From the NCBI GenBank assembly GCA_963702025.1, contig OY969699.1, positions 1,280,001 through 1,344,000 of the forward strand: 64,000 nucleotides of DNA. Reading direction: 5' to 3'. The notes under the pieces are model-generated. The model saw only the letters and a program-made list of their open reading frames with translations. It made no database searches and was not told the origin of the DNA. The position numbers and the translations under genes were made by a program. Shown here piece by piece: positions 3,349 to 62,700 of the stretch. This stretch comes from an uncultured bacterium. GTDB taxonomy: Bacteria; Babelota; Babeliae; Babelales; Vermiphilaceae. How positions within the stretch are numbered: the stretch's first letter is position 1; each line of letters begins with the position of its first letter.

Positions 3349-3424
3349 ATCCCTCGACCCTGCTCGGGAGTAAACAGTCCTTCCGCTCATCCTGAGTAGA
3401 AAACGCAGTTTTCGTATCGAAGGA
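3349..3424. repeat. Inverted doublet of family-1 REP-like hairpins
   Basis: 3349-3375 degenerate copy; 3383-3424 ccgctcatcctgagtagaaaac-gca-gttttcgtatcgaagga, matching copies at 52155, 52502 and 62662. Confidence 0.8.
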
Positions 3425-5254: not shown

Positions 5255-5282
5255 GATGCTTCGACTCGCTCAGCACGAACGG
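5255..5282. repeat. Family-1 REP-like hairpin (short variant)
   Basis: gatgcttcgactcgctcagcacgaacgg; near-identical reverse complement at 55510-55537. Confidence 0.8.
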
Positions 5283-5342: not shown

Positions 5343-5397
5343 TGGCTGCGCCAGGCGTAGCTTGCCGAGCCGGAAGGCCCGGATAAGCGTAGACTGG
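5343..5397. repeat. Family-2 hairpin fused to tRNA-Leu 3' end
   Basis: ccagg-cGTAg-ctt...aag-cGTAg-actgg ending in the tRNA CCA; similar to the inverted copy at 15624-15669. Confidence 0.75.
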
Positions 5398-15598: not shown

Positions 15599-15763
15599 CC
15601 TTTAAAGAACTGACCGTGCCAGTCCAGCCTTCGCTTATCCACGCCTTCCGGCTTGGCAAGCTACGGCGGACAGCCTACGCTTGGTGCTATAATGTCAACT
15701 TTTCGTCTCAAATCAATCCTTCAAAGAACTGGCCGTGCCAGCCGAAGCCTTGGCGTAGGCTGG
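15599..15763. repeat. Repeat cluster 3' of tRNA-Ile2: two family-2 hairpins and a 24-bp direct repeat
   Basis: DR 15599-15622 vs 15718-15741 (22/24 identical); hairpins at 15624-15669 and 15738-15763. Confidence 0.75.
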
Positions 15764-49926: not shown

Positions 49927-50658
49927 ATGTTTAAAAAAATAGTTTTTCTTATTTGTCTCTCAATGAGCGCATCATCGTATGCCATGACTTTCAGTGTCGT
50001 CGGGCAACCATTAAGCAATGTTGATCCAAAACTAGCTCAGGCAATTGCAGATTTAGGAACAAAAGCACTAAGCAACGTAGCAATTTCATTGGAAGCAACT
50101 GGTGTAAACCTTGGTGCAACACTACAAGAATCCGTTAAAATTTTGCGCAAAGCACTCGAGAATGTAGCTACAACGTTCTCCGAAAATGGTTTTAAATTAG
50201 TACTTGATCCAGAACTCGATCCAAAACTAATTGATAGCATTCAACTCATTTCTAAAGATGGCGCCAAAATAGCACTTAATCTTGATCCCGCTCTTACTAA
50301 AACTATGCAAACGATTGCCGAAAAGGGCTTCCAAATAATAGTTGATCCTGAACTTAATAAGAATCTTAAAACGTTTGCAGACCAGGGAGTAAAAGCACAG
50401 TTCGCTATTGATCCGATCACCCTAAAAACTTTCTGCTTAACCAGTGTTGGTGCAACCCTAGCGGTAGCGGGAATTTTAGTACTCTATCATGAACTTACCA
50501 AAACAGATGCCACGACAACAGAAACAGAATCTGCACAAAAAACCTACTTCCAACACTTTAAAGCATTGTTGCAAAACAAATATGTGATTGGTTCTGCGCA
50601 AGTGCTGGCCGGTCTCTTGTTGATTATCAAAAGCAATGCGTTGATCGCAAGAGGTTAA
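49927..50658 (+). CDS. Secreted/membrane hypothetical protein with internal ~21-25-aa DPxL repeats
   Basis: Signal peptide, repeats, two C-terminal hydrophobic segments. Confidence 0.65.
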   Translation: MFKKIVFLICLSMSASSYAMTFSVVGQPLSNVDPKLAQAIADLGTKALSNVAISLEATGVNLGATLQESVKILRKALENVATTFSENGFKLVLDPELDPKLIDSIQLISKDGAKIALNLDPALTKTMQTIAEKGFQIIVDPELNKNLKTFADQGVKAQFAIDPITLKTFCLTSVGATLAVAGILVLYHELTKTDATTTETESAQKTYFQHFKALLQNKYVIGSAQVLAGLLLIIKSNALIARG

Positions 50659-52028
50659 GCCATATTAAATTCTTCGGATTCTTCCTCAACATCATTAAAT
50701 GAATGTTCTTCAGATTCCGATTCTTCTTCATCAGTATCATTTTGCATGAGCGCTTCGATATCTTCTGGTTTTTTTGGCAAGGATTCGCTCAAGCAGACTA
50801 CACCGTCTTTGACAACCCAATAGTTATCTTCGATACGAATACCAATTCCTTCTTGAGGGATATAGATTCCCGGTTCGATGGTGAAAACATCACCTTCTTT
50901 TAAAGGTTCTTTAAGATCACCCACATCATGAACATCAATACCTAAGAAATGGCCAATACCATGGGGAAAATAGTTGCCATAGCCTCGCTCATCCAAGAAT
51001 TTCTTCGCCAAATGATTGAGAGATTTTTCTGGCTGTTCTTTGTTTGATAACCACATGCCCGGCTTTGCAAGATCCGCAATATATTCTTGCGTTGCAAGAA
51101 CCAGATTATAGAGCTCTTTTTGGCGTTTGGTAAAAGTACCTGAAACCGGATACGTTCGGGTTAAATCGGCACAGTAATATTCATATTCGGCGCCAATATC
51201 CACCACTACCAATTGACCATTTTTTAAGACGTCAGCATTTGTTTGATAATGAAGTATGGTGCCATTTTTGCCACCCGCCACGATGCTTGGAAATGATGGG
51301 CGGGCATTCGATCCGGTAAACATATACTCAAGACTTGCCTGCACTTCACATTCAAGAATGCCGTCTTGTATGGCGTGGGCAGCAGCTTCCTGGGCCAACA
51401 TGGTAATCTCTACTGCTTTATACATAGTTTCAATTTCACGCATATCTTTTTTGCGACGCAGTGCGGCTACCAATGGCGCTATATCAATGCAATGACTTTG
51501 AAACCCGGTGATCATCGTATCAAAGCGTGCAAGCATGGAACGTTGCTCAACGTATTCCCATGAATTTTGTGGCGCCAAGGTAAATAACTTCCCATTATCC
51601 TTTATGATCGCACTCAGATCGGCAATGAGATTGGAATAATGCTTTTTATCTGAAAAAGGGTGGAACTGATAGCCCGGCGCCATTTGCCCCAACGATTTGA
51701 TATGTTCAAATCCTAGTTTTTTTGCATTTTCTTGCGTTAAAGGAACCGGCGTGTGCACCCATGCAGATCTATTTGCTCCGTGATCGGGAGTATACAGCGT
51801 TGATTTTCCTTGTAAGTCGATAACAACTACCGCTCCGGGTTCAGTAATGCCGGTTAAATAATAGAATGAACTTTCTTGACGAAATTTAGTGCGATCGTGT
51901 TCAAAAGCACCAAAAAGAACAATTGCCCCTTTTTTCTCAGGGTATTCTTGGCTAATCAGTGCGCTCAGATCTTGTCTGCGCAACTGAGATAATGATGCGG
52001 TTGTTTGCGTTGTTTCATTAATAAACAT
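50655..52028 (-). CDS. pepP: Xaa-Pro aminopeptidase (M24B)
   Basis: FRQESSFYYLTG, DIG, ADLTRT, HGIGH.LG.DVHD, TIEPGIY, GIRIED. Confidence 0.95.
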   Translation of the reverse strand: MFINETTQTTASLSQLRRQDLSALISQEYPEKKGAIVLFGAFEHDRTKFRQESSFYYLTGITEPGAVVVIDLQGKSTLYTPDHGANRSAWVHTPVPLTQENAKKLGFEHIKSLGQMAPGYQFHPFSDKKHYSNLIADLSAIIKDNGKLFTLAPQNSWEYVEQRSMLARFDTMITGFQSHCIDIAPLVAALRRKKDMREIETMYKAVEITMLAQEAAAHAIQDGILECEVQASLEYMFTGSNARPSFPSIVAGGKNGTILHYQTNADVLKNGQLVVVDIGAEYEYYCADLTRTYPVSGTFTKRQKELYNLVLATQEYIADLAKPGMWLSNKEQPEKSLNHLAKKFLDERGYGNYFPHGIGHFLGIDVHDVGDLKEPLKEGDVFTIEPGIYIPQEGIGIRIEDNYWVVKDGVVCLSESLPKKPEDIEALMQNDTDEEESESEEHSFNDVEEESEEFNMA

Positions 52029-52054
52029 GGAAATTCCTTATAAATTTTTTTCAG

Positions 52055-52199
52055 ATATCATTCGACACGCTTCGCTACTCCGGATGTGTTCCTAAAACTT
52101 ATTTAAAGCTTAAAACTTACTCGATGTTTTTTACACTTTCTCATGAACTTTTAACCACACATCCTGAATAAAAAATCGAAGATTTTTGTATCGAAGGAT
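52055..52199. repeat. Inverted pair of family-1 hairpins downstream of the GIY-YIG gene
   Basis: 52055-52089 degenerate copy; 52155-52199 inverted long-stem copy. Confidence 0.85.
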
Positions 52200-52202
52200 T
52201 TC

Positions 52203-52498
52203 CTACTTTTTAATATTAAAGTTTTTTTTAGATAAAAGTTTTATCTTGTTCCAGTCTTTAGCAAGTAGGGCCGCTTTTTTCTTTCTCGACCATCCTTTGA
52301 TTTGTCTTTCAATAATCAGAGCATCATCTTTTGTTGCAAAATCTTGAACAAAAACTAATTCAACCGGCAACGTGAAGCTGTAGAATATCCACCCTGCCTA
52401 TTGTTATGTTCTGCAAACCTTTGCTCAAGATCCCTCGTTAGTCCAACATAATAAGAATTATCGGCACATTTTAACATATAAACAAAATAACTTTTCAT
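52203..52498 (-). pseudogene. GIY-YIG nuclease (UPF0213/YhbQ-like), broken by a 1-nt deletion near 52370
   Basis: MKSYFVYMLKCADNSYYVGLTRDLEQRFAEHN...TASR, then in the shifted frame LPVELVFVQDFATKDDALIIERQIKGWSRKKKAALL...TAG. Confidence 0.9.
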
Positions 52499-52501
52499 AA
52501 C

Positions 52502-52658
52502 TTTGAATATCCTTCGATACGCTTCGCTACTCAGGATGTGTGATTTCAAATTCTCTTAAATATTAAAATTTTTCATTTGTCATACAAAATAACTATTTCA
52601 AGCTGATAGCATTTAATTTGAATATCCTTCGATACGCTTCGCTACTCAGGATGTGTGA
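52502..52658. repeat. Two identical 42-bp family-1 repeats (52502-52543, 52617-52658) with a 73-bp spacer
   Basis: tttgaatatccttcgatacgcttcgctactcaggatgtgtga twice. Confidence 0.95.
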
Positions 52659-52661
52659 AGA

Positions 52662-53264
52662 TTAAAATGGTCTACGTTCAGATAATGCCTTATACACGGT
52701 AACTCTATCCATCGATTCTATGGCGGATCCTACCGGAATGCCACGCGCCAGACAAGAAATCTTAACGCCACTTTGCCGTAATTTGCTCGCGATAAACGAT
52801 GCTGTTGCCTCACCTTCTGGCGTCTGATTTGTTGCTAAAATAATTTCTGCAATCTGACTATTTTCAACGCGATGAATCAAGGGGATAATATTTAAATTTT
52901 CCGGGCCGATTCCTTCCAAGGGGCAAATTGCCCCACCAAGCACATGATAGACACCGGTATAACCGCCGGTTTTTTCTATCGCAATAAGCTCTTGCCATGT
53001 CTCTACCACGCAGACAAGCGATTGATCACGGCGCGTATTGGAGCACAACGAACAGGCGCGATCTTTTTCGCGCCATGAAAAGCAGGTGCCGCATTGGGTT
53101 ATATTTTGTTTTACTTCTTTAAGAGTTGCACAAAATTGATCAACCTTGTGTTCCTCAAGGTGCAAAAAATAGCTGGCGACTCGATAAATATTTTTTGAAG
53201 CCAGATAGGGCACTTGCTGCAAGGTTTTAAGAAGTCTGGTGAGCGAAGGGGTTTCTGGCAACAT
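52662..53264 (-). CDS. recR: Recombination protein RecR
   Basis: C4 zinc finger, YHVLGG, ILATN.TPEGEATA, LARGIP. Confidence 0.95.
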   Translation of the reverse strand: MLPETPSLTRLLKTLQQVPYLASKNIYRVASYFLHLEEHKVDQFCATLKEVKQNITQCGTCFSWREKDRACSLCSNTRRDQSLVCVVETWQELIAIEKTGGYTGVYHVLGGAICPLEGIGPENLNIIPLIHRVENSQIAEIILATNQTPEGEATASFIASKLRQSGVKISCLARGIPVGSAIESMDRVTVYKALSERRPF

Positions 53265-53267
53265 GAT

Positions 53268-55405: not shown

Positions 55406-55573
55406 CCCTTCGTGACCCGTCTTCCGACTTCGCTAAAGCTACGTCGGGCAGGTCGCCAAGGCGGAGTTTATCCTGAGCTCACCGAAGGGCCGGGCACGCG
55501 CACAACGACCCGTTCGTGCTGAGCCCGTCGAAGCATCGTGGTGAGTGATTGCGAAGCAATTGTATCGAACCAT
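55406..55573. repeat. Composite (BIME-like) cluster of family-1 and family-2 hairpins
   Basis: Units at 55424-55447, 55466-55489, 55510-55537 and 55536-55573. Confidence 0.85.
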
Positions 55574-56985: not shown

Positions 56986-57405
56986 CGCTACAATGAAGTC
57001 AGGATTTTTTTCTAAAACACGTCCGAATGCTTGGGAAATCACGTTCTGTTTTTCCTCCATACTCAACTGATCGTAATGAGAAAATTCTTTATCCGTTTGG
57101 GCTTCTTGTAAAGTTTCCTGTAAAATTGGGTAACTGTATTCGTTAAGTGATTCAACCGAAATGGTCCTTCCATCTGTTAAATTTTTTATTTTCTCAGCGA
57201 ATGATTTAAACTCCGGCGATTCAAGATCTCTCTGCGCAGAAGCCTCCAGGAGTTCCCCATGTTTTTTTATAACAGCATCAAGTTCATGAATGAGCTTTCT
57301 CGATTGTGGCTTTAACTGATTAAGCCAACTCTGCTCAATTGGTTTTTCCATAGCAGAAATAGTCGCAACACCAAATATTAAAAGCAGTAATAATCGTAAT
57401 TTCAT
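56977..57405 (-). CDS. Secreted hypothetical protein (signal peptide + AMEKP)
   Basis: MKLRLLLLLIFGVATISA-MEKP; helical acidic body. Confidence 0.65.
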   Translation of the reverse strand: MKLRLLLLLIFGVATISAMEKPIEQSWLNQLKPQSRKLIHELDAVIKKHGELLEASAQRDLESPEFKSFAEKIKNLTDGRTISVESLNEYSYPILQETLQEAQTDKEFSHYDQLSMEEKQNVISQAFGRVLEKNPDFIVALG

Positions 57406-57413
57406 TGACAACC

Positions 57414-58247
57414 TCACTCCAACTTAGTTTTCCCATTATATTGTTTAAGCAATTGAATTATTTGGTTCCCTTTTGCTGGATCCCGAATATTTTTGACCGC
57501 ATTAGCAACTTCAGTCTTTGCAATACCTTGATCCGCACCTGCCTCAAGAAGCATTTGAATTATAACTGGATTTTCTTCAAGAATGGCAATTACAAGGGGG
57601 ATAATTGAAGATCGAGAGCTCGTATAAGCATTCGGATCAGCCCCAAGCTCTAAAAGCTTATCTACCATTTCGACGTTATCATTTGCGATTGCTGCTCCCA
57701 GCGGAGATATATCTAAATCATCAAAAAGCTCAATGCTTGCACCAAGATTCACTAAAAAAGTAAAAAGCGTTACATTATTTTTTTGTATTGCAAGCAAAAA
57801 ATCTCTCTGCAGTTGTTTAAGAAATTTATCTTCATCCTGATCGTGAGATAGCGAAGCCGGAATTAAGCCCTTTTGATAATTCTGTTTATACCAATCTCGT
57901 GCGCCCGGGACATTTAAACGAGCCGCAACATCAATATAGGCATAATGCGCATCATCAGGGTCGATTGTTGTCCCAAATTTCTCATATAACTGTTCCATAA
58001 TATCGTCCGTTATTTGATCATCATCAAGCAAGTTACGAATTTGTATACTATCCGCACCTGCTTTATGTATTCCATTAATAGCTTCATCTAGGGTTACTGC
58101 ATTGGCAATAATATTTTTTATTATTGGACGCATAGTTAGTTGCTGAAGGCTTAATGGCTCGAATAACTTTAATCGTAAATTAGGGATTTCGGGCGCAAAA
58201 ATGGTTCCGAAGACAAATAGCGAAAGTCCTAACAATCGCAATTTCAT
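57414..58247 (-). CDS. Secreted ankyrin-repeat protein
   Basis: SPLGAAIANDNVEMVDKLLELGADPN, PLVIAI...MLLEAGAD; paralog of neighbour. Confidence 0.9.
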   Translation of the reverse strand: MKLRLLGLSLFVFGTIFAPEIPNLRLKLFEPLSLQQLTMRPIIKNIIANAVTLDEAINGIHKAGADSIQIRNLLDDDQITDDIMEQLYEKFGTTIDPDDAHYAYIDVAARLNVPGARDWYKQNYQKGLIPASLSHDQDEDKFLKQLQRDFLLAIQKNNVTLFTFLVNLGASIELFDDLDISPLGAAIANDNVEMVDKLLELGADPNAYTSSRSSIIPLVIAILEENPVIIQMLLEAGADQGIAKTEVANAVKNIRDPAKGNQIIQLLKQYNGKTKLE

Positions 58248-58258
58248 TATTCTTCTCC

Positions 58259-59101
58259 TTACTCCAACTTAGTTTTCTCGGTATATGGTTTAAGCAATTG
58301 AATTATTTTGTTTCTTGTTGCAGGATCCTGAATATCTTGTACGGCCTTGGCAACATTTACTGTTGGAGTTGCGATATTTTGATCAGCACCTGCCTCAAGA
58401 AGCATTCGAACTATGTCCGGATTTTCTTTATGTATTGCTGTTATAAGTGGAGTCGCCAAAAAGAATCCGGCATTTCCGTTAGGATCAGCCCCCATATCTA
58501 AAAGCTTTTTTACCACTTGAACGTTGTCACTCCTAATCGCTTCGCCCAATGGAGATATACTAAACCCAGCGAAAAGCTCAATGCTCGCTCCAAGATTTAA
58601 TAAAAAATTAAAGAATATGAGATTATTTGCTCTTATAGCAGCCAAAAATTCTTTATTTAACCATAGACGAAATCGTTCCTCAGTTTTTTCTTGGGGTTTC
58701 TCAAAGATTATGCCCTTATCATAATTCTGAGCATACCAATCTCGCGCACCTTGGGTATTTAAACGAGCAGCGATATCAATATAGGCATAATGCGTATCAT
58801 CTGGACTGATTTCGGCCCCAAATTTATCATATAACTGTTTCATAATATCATTCGTTATTTGCTCATTATCAAGTAAGTTAAGAATTTGAATATTATCTGT
58901 AGCTGCTTTATGTATTCCATTAATTGCTTGATTTAAAGTAGCCGCATTGGCAATAATATTTTTTATTATTGGGCGCATAGTTAGTTGCTGCAAACTTAAT
59001 GGCTGGAATTGTTTTACTTGCGCTTGCACAGGCGGTTTTTCCATCGCACCACTGGTTAAAACAGCTAAAAAAGTAATCATTACACATGCTTGGATCTTCA
59101 T
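58259..59101 (-). CDS. Secreted ankyrin-repeat protein (signal peptide + AMEKP)
   Basis: SPLGEAI...KLLDMGADPN, TPLITAIH...MLLEAGAD. Confidence 0.9.
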   Translation of the reverse strand: MKIQACVMITFLAVLTSGAMEKPPVQAQVKQFQPLSLQQLTMRPIIKNIIANAATLNQAINGIHKAATDNIQILNLLDNEQITNDIMKQLYDKFGAEISPDDTHYAYIDIAARLNTQGARDWYAQNYDKGIIFEKPQEKTEERFRLWLNKEFLAAIRANNLIFFNFLLNLGASIELFAGFSISPLGEAIRSDNVQVVKKLLDMGADPNGNAGFFLATPLITAIHKENPDIVRMLLEAGADQNIATPTVNVAKAVQDIQDPATRNKIIQLLKPYTEKTKLE

Positions 59102-59433
59102 TATTCTCCATAAAGCATTTTTGTTAGCTTTTGGATATATTCACCATATAACTGCTTTGCCCTTACAGTATATTCATCCGCGTTTATTTTACCTGTTACA
59201 AATTCTTGCAAAGCTTGTGCTTTTTTTTCTTGAAAATCACGAGTTCCTTCAGCCGAAACTTTTTCTTTTATATCTTCGGGAAGATTTTGAACTGACTGTC
59301 CTCTCTTCCATATTTCTTGTACGGTTATGTCAATCAGTGATTTGGGTTGTTGGGGTTGTTGGGTATGGCTACTTCCTACAAAACATAATGCGAAAATACT
59401 TAACACTTTTAACAAATTAATGGCTTTATTCAT
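59101..59433 (-). CDS. Secreted hypothetical protein with SOCS/BC-box-like segment
   Basis: GAGGAG SD; signal peptide; PKSLIDITVQEI...LPEDIK. Confidence 0.6.
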   Translation of the reverse strand: MNKAINLLKVLSIFALCFVGSSHTQQPQQPKSLIDITVQEIWKRGQSVQNLPEDIKEKVSAEGTRDFQEKKAQALQEFVTGKINADEYTVRAKQLYGEYIQKLTKMLYGE

Positions 59434-62608: not shown

Positions 62609-62700
62609 ATGGTTCGATACGATTGCTACGCAATCACTCACCACGAGCGGCACACCTAGGCCCGCTCGCCCTGAGTAGCAGTTTACTGCGTATCGAAGGG
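62609..62700. repeat. Inverted doublet of family-1 hairpins between ffh and rpsP
   Basis: 62609-62650 and 62662-62700. Confidence 0.85.

Follow-up and report, generated by a model that had tools for sequence, protein, structure and literature searches.

The stretch between pepP and recR raises the question of why a gene for a small GIY-YIG nuclease should be bracketed by four copies of a hairpin repeat that is scattered through the genome, and whether gene and repeat make up a unit that moves. The sequence-only reading, which had noticed this arrangement in the window (the whole stretch of 64,000 nucleotides analysed here), proposed a master locus and left open whether such a pairing had already been described. 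In kind, it has been. The parts of Chenal et al. (2025, PMC11893778) used here describe Ssn, single-domain GIY-YIG enzymes of CDD cd10448 (GIY-YIG_unchar_3) that bind tagged ssDNA hairpins and cut ssDNA a few bases upstream of the hairpin, cleavage being demonstrated for SsnA. Ssn genes are flanked by their own NTS/SRM hairpins and Ssn lower transformation in Neisseria; the same source draws the analogy with IS200 and REP, an IS-like origin being raised as a hypothesis only. The lineage studied here lies outside that family as defined. We give a probability of about 0.62 to the reading that the locus is a one-gene cassette, absent from the same site in relatives, whose YazA/UPF0213-like nuclease would bind its own tagged hairpin with tandem GA in ssDNA and nick immediately outside the ends of the cassette, host recombination completing the copying and thereby spreading both the cassette and lone hairpins.

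All four hairpin units were found where they had been drawn, in the arrangement -> -> gene <- -> when read in the direction of the gene (Table 1). The two upstream units are identical 42-mers, while the downstream pair is inverted, one unit to the other, and both its members are more divergent than the upstream copies; the decay of the outermost one follows a different pattern in a related strain. As drawn, the repeats leave 3 nt to the ATG (52498) on one side and 3 nt to the TAG (52203-52205) on the other, in agreement with the claim that they begin within about 4 bp of both gene ends, and the stem proper of unit 2 stops 10 nt ahead of the ATG. The AAGGA that the proximal upstream copy was thought to supply as a Shine-Dalgarno sequence is present 11 nt before the ATG. 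A conserved role of this kind was nevertheless rejected, because the stem ends differ among homologues (GAACCA, GAAGCA) and the distance from hairpin to start varies from about 5 to 98 nt.

Table 1. Features of the nuclease locus and further hairpin units in the window
Feature	Position	Strand	Description
Hairpin unit 1, outer upstream	52617..52658	-	ACACA tag, ATCCT/AGGAT stem, tandem GA/GA, inner GCGAAGC hairpin; core 52624-52656
Hairpin unit 2, inner upstream	52502..52543	-	identical to unit 1; core 52509-52541
GIY-YIG nuclease gene	52203..52498	-	single-domain, YazA/UPF0213-like; one-base frameshift near 52368 in assembly
Hairpin unit 3, inner downstream	52155..52199	+	inverted relative to units 1 and 2; inner stem longer
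Hairpin unit 4, outer downstream	52055..52089	-	decayed; orientation as unit 1
recR	52662..53264	-	upstream host gene; TIGR00615
pepP	50655..52028	-	downstream host gene; Xaa-Pro aminopeptidase
Dispersed unit	3383..3424	+	CCGCTCA tag
Dispersed short unit	5257..5282	-	CCGTTCG tag
Two dispersed units in tandem	55510..55572	+	
Inverted pair of dispersed units	62610..62700	.	CCGCTCG tags

The gene measures 296 nt, and its frameshift splits it into a 47-aa N-terminal half (PF01541, E 3e-10) and a 55-aa C-terminal half (E 0.003). The gene of about 98 aa read earlier is thus broken in this assembly and intact in a related strain, where contigs from 4 of 4 runs (X2, X3, X7, X8) carry one extra A in the AA run behind 52368, giving an open frame of 98 codons. 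The four runs share the same variants and are therefore counted as one lineage. Since this third A opens the frame, the break is either a one-base assembly slip or a recent inactivation of this copy. For comparisons, the window protein was read with an X at the break. Its Y7, Y17 and E64 align in sequence with the catalytic positions of an SsnA homologue; identity to YazA is 40% (E 3e-18), and the closest solved structures, retrieved with an intact paralogue as query, are the UPF0213 proteins 1zg2 (E 4e-17) and 1ywl (E 8e-14). Pfam and NCBIfam models fail to separate the small GIY-YIG subfamilies. The nearest homologue loci are titled Babeliales/Dependentiae; no relative of the nuclease query was found among viral contigs, and the best phage and plasmid matches stay below 60%.

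The repeat forms a large family of its own. Genome-wide, the hairpin pattern matched 157 times, against 6, 9 and 5 times in three Markov shuffles, and a stricter pattern retained 150 units, arranged as 43 clusters of two and 64 singles; only 20 of the 150 lie mostly inside ORFs, by a crude set of ORF calls spanning 87% of the genome. Each unit is built from an unpaired tag, a short stem, T-GA-G ... C-GA-A and a closing stem. Among the 150 units the tag is CGTTCG in 48, CGCTCG in 40, CGCTCA in 19 and of ACACA types in 18. Complementary 3-bp stems occur at 116 of the 144 tagged sites, where 40 would be expected if the two sides were independent, and pairing was not demanded in the search. The inner part varies in length and is mostly closed by C(GAA)G (38), C(GCA)G (18) or C(GTA)G (6). 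Tandem sheared G-A pairs and GNA triloops are stable DNA motifs, and their presence points to a role of the hairpin in single-stranded DNA. Nearest-neighbour DNA folding with standard parameters assigns units 1 and 2 only about -2 kcal/mol; their stability presumably comes from the sheared G-A pairs and GNA loops. The same family does recur elsewhere in the window, in six further units, all with CGYTCR-like tags and none with ACACA.

The association between nuclease and hairpin was then sought in homologues. A bracket with outward tags was present in 25 of 48 distinct genome homologues of at least 45% identity, a set drawn from relatives and genome contigs, the hairpin lying upstream in 30 and downstream in 33, and in the opposite orientation in 2 and 4, respectively; none of 8 weaker homologues (<45% identity) was bracketed. 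The metagenome set went from 76 loci to 72 distinct ones, 67 of them at 45% identity or more and 57 with full flanks, and partly overlaps with the genome set. Of these 57, 34 were bracketed and 51 had a hairpin on at least one side, distal windows giving 0/42 and 0/42. The same bracket test returned 2 of the 1,491 ORFs of this genome, so that flanks of homologues are enriched for the hairpin over those of ordinary genes, as anticipated. When loci were sorted by nearest reference, the GA hairpin accompanied 80/103 of this clade, 1/24 of an Ssn-like clade and 0/4 YazA/YhbQ-like genes, whereas the published SRM accompanied 0/103 (within 300 nt), 8/24 and 0/4. A cultured Sphingomonas replicon has the same bracket. 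These data support an association that is specific, oriented and widespread.

The idea that this is the master locus of the family did not survive. Eight PF01541 matches were found in the genome, one long and UvrC-like, three belonging to a second small clade and four to the present one, and each of these four is bracketed by inverted hairpins. The genome thus holds four cassettes of the clade, the present copy is frameshifted as assembled, and the ACACA subtype accounts for just 18/150 units. No other nuclease gene in the genome has ACACA-tag units at its flanks. The window gene is thus the natural and best candidate partner of this subtype, a genus-restricted variant: ACACA units number 4-25 in four congeners and 0 in 72 genomes of other genera. 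In those four congeners the best match to the C-terminal half of the window protein is at 50-58%.

Several observations concern other cassettes and neighbouring genes. An intact paralogous cassette at C1:490290-490810, with its own hairpin variant (GATGGAG...GAGAGG), sits between the 3' end of a gene that we take to be typA-like and an imperfect copy of that end of about 47 bp; seven congeners lack the cassette and the duplication at this site. At C1:164700-165170 lies a 5'-truncated copy (88% amino-acid and 92% nucleotide identity) of the cassette at C1:1201845, whose own nuclease gene, a paralogue of the window gene, is intact (C1:1201845-1202129), and nested hairpins lie where the gene start is lost. 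A third small GIY-YIG clade (C1:1567658, 1568458 and 1019370; also L017, L020, L021 and L034) often stands directly behind tRNA-like genes and seems to go with a different hairpin, GCRTAGC...GCGAMG, of which the window contains copies at 5356-5397 and 15624-15665; a crude expression for it matched 6/36 loci, and a separate test gave 26 versus 8 in the control. In one relative (L071 of G005, about 900-1260), a small reverse-strand frame lies upstream of the cassette within the same insertion. On the minus strand of the window, 57300-59150 holds two tandem paralogous genes of about 845 bp that are 74-83% alike, presumably encoding ankyrin-like repeats.

Repeat number follows the nuclease in part. 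Among 60 relatives, the 26 with the clade have a median of 42.5 hairpin matches and the 34 without it 5.5 (p 9e-6, kin not being independent in this statistic; p 0.18 for a reversed-pattern control), and among the 48 relatives at least 90% complete the medians are 30 and 5. The expected correspondence holds for these medians and breaks down in genomes that are rich in repeats and free of the clade: G021 (71 matches; 95% complete), G015 (50) and G013 (49; 61% complete). G021 is a single-contig genome in which neither a small GIY-YIG gene nor a Y1 transposase was found. A Y1/RAYT transposase (PF01797) was likewise not found in the present genome or in G015, and such an enzyme was rejected as hidden partner; G053 and G058 have one match each. 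On the other side, 13 of the 26 clade carriers have fewer than 40 matches, some of them because their TGAA/TTGAA hairpin variant escapes the search pattern. A survey of 80 genomes for one hairpin variant counted 27, 14 and 3 copies in the only three with the nuclease sub-lineage belonging to it (at least 66% identity), 2 and 1 in two others and 0 in 75, all five genomes with copies being of one genus.

Evidence on mobility comes from the sites. Recovery of recR loci from 29 of the 58 relatives with a recR match confirmed the suspected empty site, no GIY-YIG gene being present between pepP and recR in 29/29. Measured in five congeners, the distance between recR and the first pepP codon that aligns is 18-91 nt; one congener has a lone hairpin unit in this gap, oriented like unit 4, and hairpins of the family also occupy it in three other genomes. 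Conversely, both flanks could be mapped for 9 of the 14 cassette loci taken from congeners, and none of these nine sites holds a GIY-YIG gene in the present genome. In another congener, a broken cassette (L070, G001:C13, about 1410-1940) occupies the other side of recR, towards yidC, at a place that in the window is a gap of just 3 nt (53265-53267). Filled and empty alleles thus exist, and sites vary among congeners, as is expected of a mobile element. Neither a clean junction of insertion nor a short duplication of the target could be recovered, the relatives being too diverged.

Comparison with the related strain adds to this. The strain differs from the window at 54/675 bases on the recR side and 65/475 in pepP, and at only 4/509 plus one indel in the cassette (52141 to 52649; Fisher p 7e-10 and 3e-17), linkage across the cassette, which no single contig of the strain spans, being given by overlaps inside repeats and similar depth. 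Such low divergence fits a recent transfer of the cassette between lineages; ordinary recombination could also yield a near-identical tract of 0.5 kb. A contig of run X1 that leaves the locus at 52199 into sequence resembling that after another genomic hairpin was excluded as a probable repeat mis-join. No RNA run containing the locus was found.

We think that the cassette probably spreads as a minimal mobile element, on the basis of its observed architecture, the outward tags on opposite strands, the specificity of clade to hairpin, the patchy and shifting sites and the conserved catalytic residues. The hairpin would fold once its strand becomes unpaired, during replication or transcription or in incoming DNA. 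By analogy with SsnA, the enzyme would then cut a few bases 5' of the tag, so that the nicks fall immediately beyond the two ends of the cassette. Because DNA hydrolysis by GIY-YIG enzymes proceeds without a covalent intermediate, it would be left to host recombination or template switching to finish the copying, starting at the flanking 3'-OH and with a preference for sites where a hairpin is already present. It is tempting to go further, and we do so tentatively, at somewhat less than even odds: the cassette would be a transposase-free mobile element of about 0.45 kb, in which nicking of the cognate tandem-GA hairpins in ssDNA, by a GIY-YIG nuclease of 98 residues from outside the Ssn family, lets host repair copy either the whole cassette or single hairpins to new positions and, in other species, to positions already marked by a hairpin. 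Two strains that are 8-14% diverged in the flanks would then share a near-identical cassette because it was recently transferred in a homing-like manner, and a separate hairpin family would be run by each of several small GIY-YIG clades.

The strongest competitor, which we hold to be unlikely though worth serious attention, is that the nuclease cuts the hairpins for the benefit of the host, like SsnA in Neisseria, restricting incoming ssDNA or tuning recombination, while cassette and repeats are moved passively by host recombination, transformation or another enzyme. This is the sole in vivo role shown for such a pair in the parts of PMC11893778 used here. The lack of strand transfer in GIY-YIG chemistry would suit it, as would the persistence of repeats in clade-free genomes and the ComEC and DprA family genes of this genome, but ComEC and DprA are also found in 10-11 of 14 control genomes. 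Moreover, host service predicts a fixed locus and steady retention, whereas sites differ between congeners, the clade is found in 26/60 relatives and its copies are often broken; nor does it lead one to expect a single genome with several divergent copies, each with its own hairpin variants.

The enzyme could also be a plain member of the Ssn family whose hairpin the published motif has overlooked, which we consider improbable. Size, fold, catalytic positions and the layout of tag plus hairpin are shared: PF01541 is recognised in both halves of the protein, with the catalytic Y, Y and E. Its similarity to the N. gonorrhoeae SsnA homologue (L260, standing in for the N. meningitidis protein) is 29.5% at E 2.8e-6 (E 8.6e-7 for the intact paralogue), far behind that to YazA and below the Ssn membership threshold, a blastp match to SsnA at E below 1e-10 with 75% cover. 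In quick trees the Ssn branch (SH-aLRT 99-100, length 1.2-1.6) excludes the window protein, and a joint clade with YazA/UPF0213 was not resolved; a forced sister position to the Ssn clade is not rejected (AU p 0.26). The SRM expression gave 0 matches in the 500 nt on each side of the gene and 2 in the whole genome. On the Planktothrix plasmid NZ_LR882964.1 (L142), an Ssn-clade gene between an MmeI-type gene and DISARM drmA is flanked by TGTC-tagged tandem-GA hairpin arrays that the SRM expression misses. Given this hairpin at one Ssn-clade gene and the sister position that is not rejected, the two lineages may share an origin. We infer that the window protein works like Ssn without belonging to that family as defined.

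Least probable of all is an ordinary repair nuclease of the YhbQ/YazA type beside repeats that act at the RNA level, as terminators or stabilisers, and settle in whatever space lies between genes. The UPF0213 structures and the greater frequency of repeats near gene ends (78 and 59 of 1,491 ORFs) than near starts (37 and 23) might suggest such a reading, but it is contradicted by oriented bracketing enriched several-hundred-fold and specific to the clade. The hairpin-free yazA/yhbQ-like loci, scans of 52000-52720 that gave 0 promoters and 0 terminators, and a best Rfam match no better than E 3.5 speak against it as well.

If correct, our reading extends site-specific ssDNA nuclease/hairpin pairs past the single published family to a branch whose members carry annotations as hypothetical or repair proteins, and it names a candidate substrate for each enzyme, making a direct assay possible. 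It suggests where an abundant kind of intergenic repeat, seen in lineages from Babeliales to Sphingomonas and Chloroflexota, may originate, and supplies comparative evidence in favour of the mobility of such cassettes, which Chenal et al. put forward as a hypothesis. Novel specificities in the cutting of ssDNA, if real, would be useful tools.

Among known systems, REP/REPIN elements with their RAYT are similar in that a gene is bracketed by inverted tagged hairpins, that lone and paired copies lie between genes and that repeats outlast the enzyme in some genomes. They differ in that RAYT (TnpA-REP) is an HUH Y1 transposase and the gene here encodes a GIY-YIG protein, in a genome with no PF01797 match, and in the tag, which is CGTTCG, CGCTCG, CGCTCA or ACACA in place of GTAG. 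RAYTs are typically single-copy, according to the part of PMC5581495 consulted, unlike the several cassettes per genome at shifting sites seen here. The CGTC-tagged REP superfamily (Di Nocera et al. 2013, PMC3733652) has a related layout of tag plus stem, with no associated transposase; in the passages used, its members have perfect stems of 8-9 bp and loops of 4-5 nt and correspond to NTS/SRM, and those passages contain neither the tandem-GA form nor the nuclease (0 occurrences of GIY). The portions seen of PMC3733652, PMC1564403 (Dunin-Horkawicz 2006) and PMC1839093 do not link small GIY-YIG genes to repeats. The stand-alone Slx1-like/UPF0213 proteins, such as E. coli YhbQ and B. subtilis YazA (treated in the same portion of PMC1564403), are the closest named sequences and structures. 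Their genes lie in gene-dense loci without hairpins, whereas this clade is patchy, multi-copy and hairpin-bracketed.

Ssn comes closest. Both systems have a single-domain GIY-YIG gene of about 95 aa with its own hairpin on both sides and many dispersed intergenic copies, an unpaired 5' tag and stem that give strand polarity, matching Y6/Y17/E64 positions and a hairpin variant per enzyme. The main text of PMC11893778 and 12 of its 14 supplements do not mention cd10456, cd10449 or UPF0213, and a literature search, with subscription journals outside its reach, found no publication on this lineage; Fig. 5a of Chenal et al., a patent application on the subject (PCT/CA2022/051668) and the groups SsnB and SsnC in the paper as first submitted, apparently subdivisions of the Ssn tree, may affect its novelty. 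Unlike Ssn, the present protein stands on another branch, closer to YazA/UPF0213, and in its hairpin a CGYTCR or ACACA tag is joined to a short stem, a tandem GA/GA that never varies and an inner hairpin that does, a form that the SRM expression does not match. Occupied as well as empty sites, and a tract that is nearly identical in otherwise diverged strains, were observed here beyond what the consulted parts of the Ssn paper report. In summary, the locus likely represents a second lineage of Ssn-type nuclease-hairpin pairs, with its own branch of the enzyme and its own hairpin.
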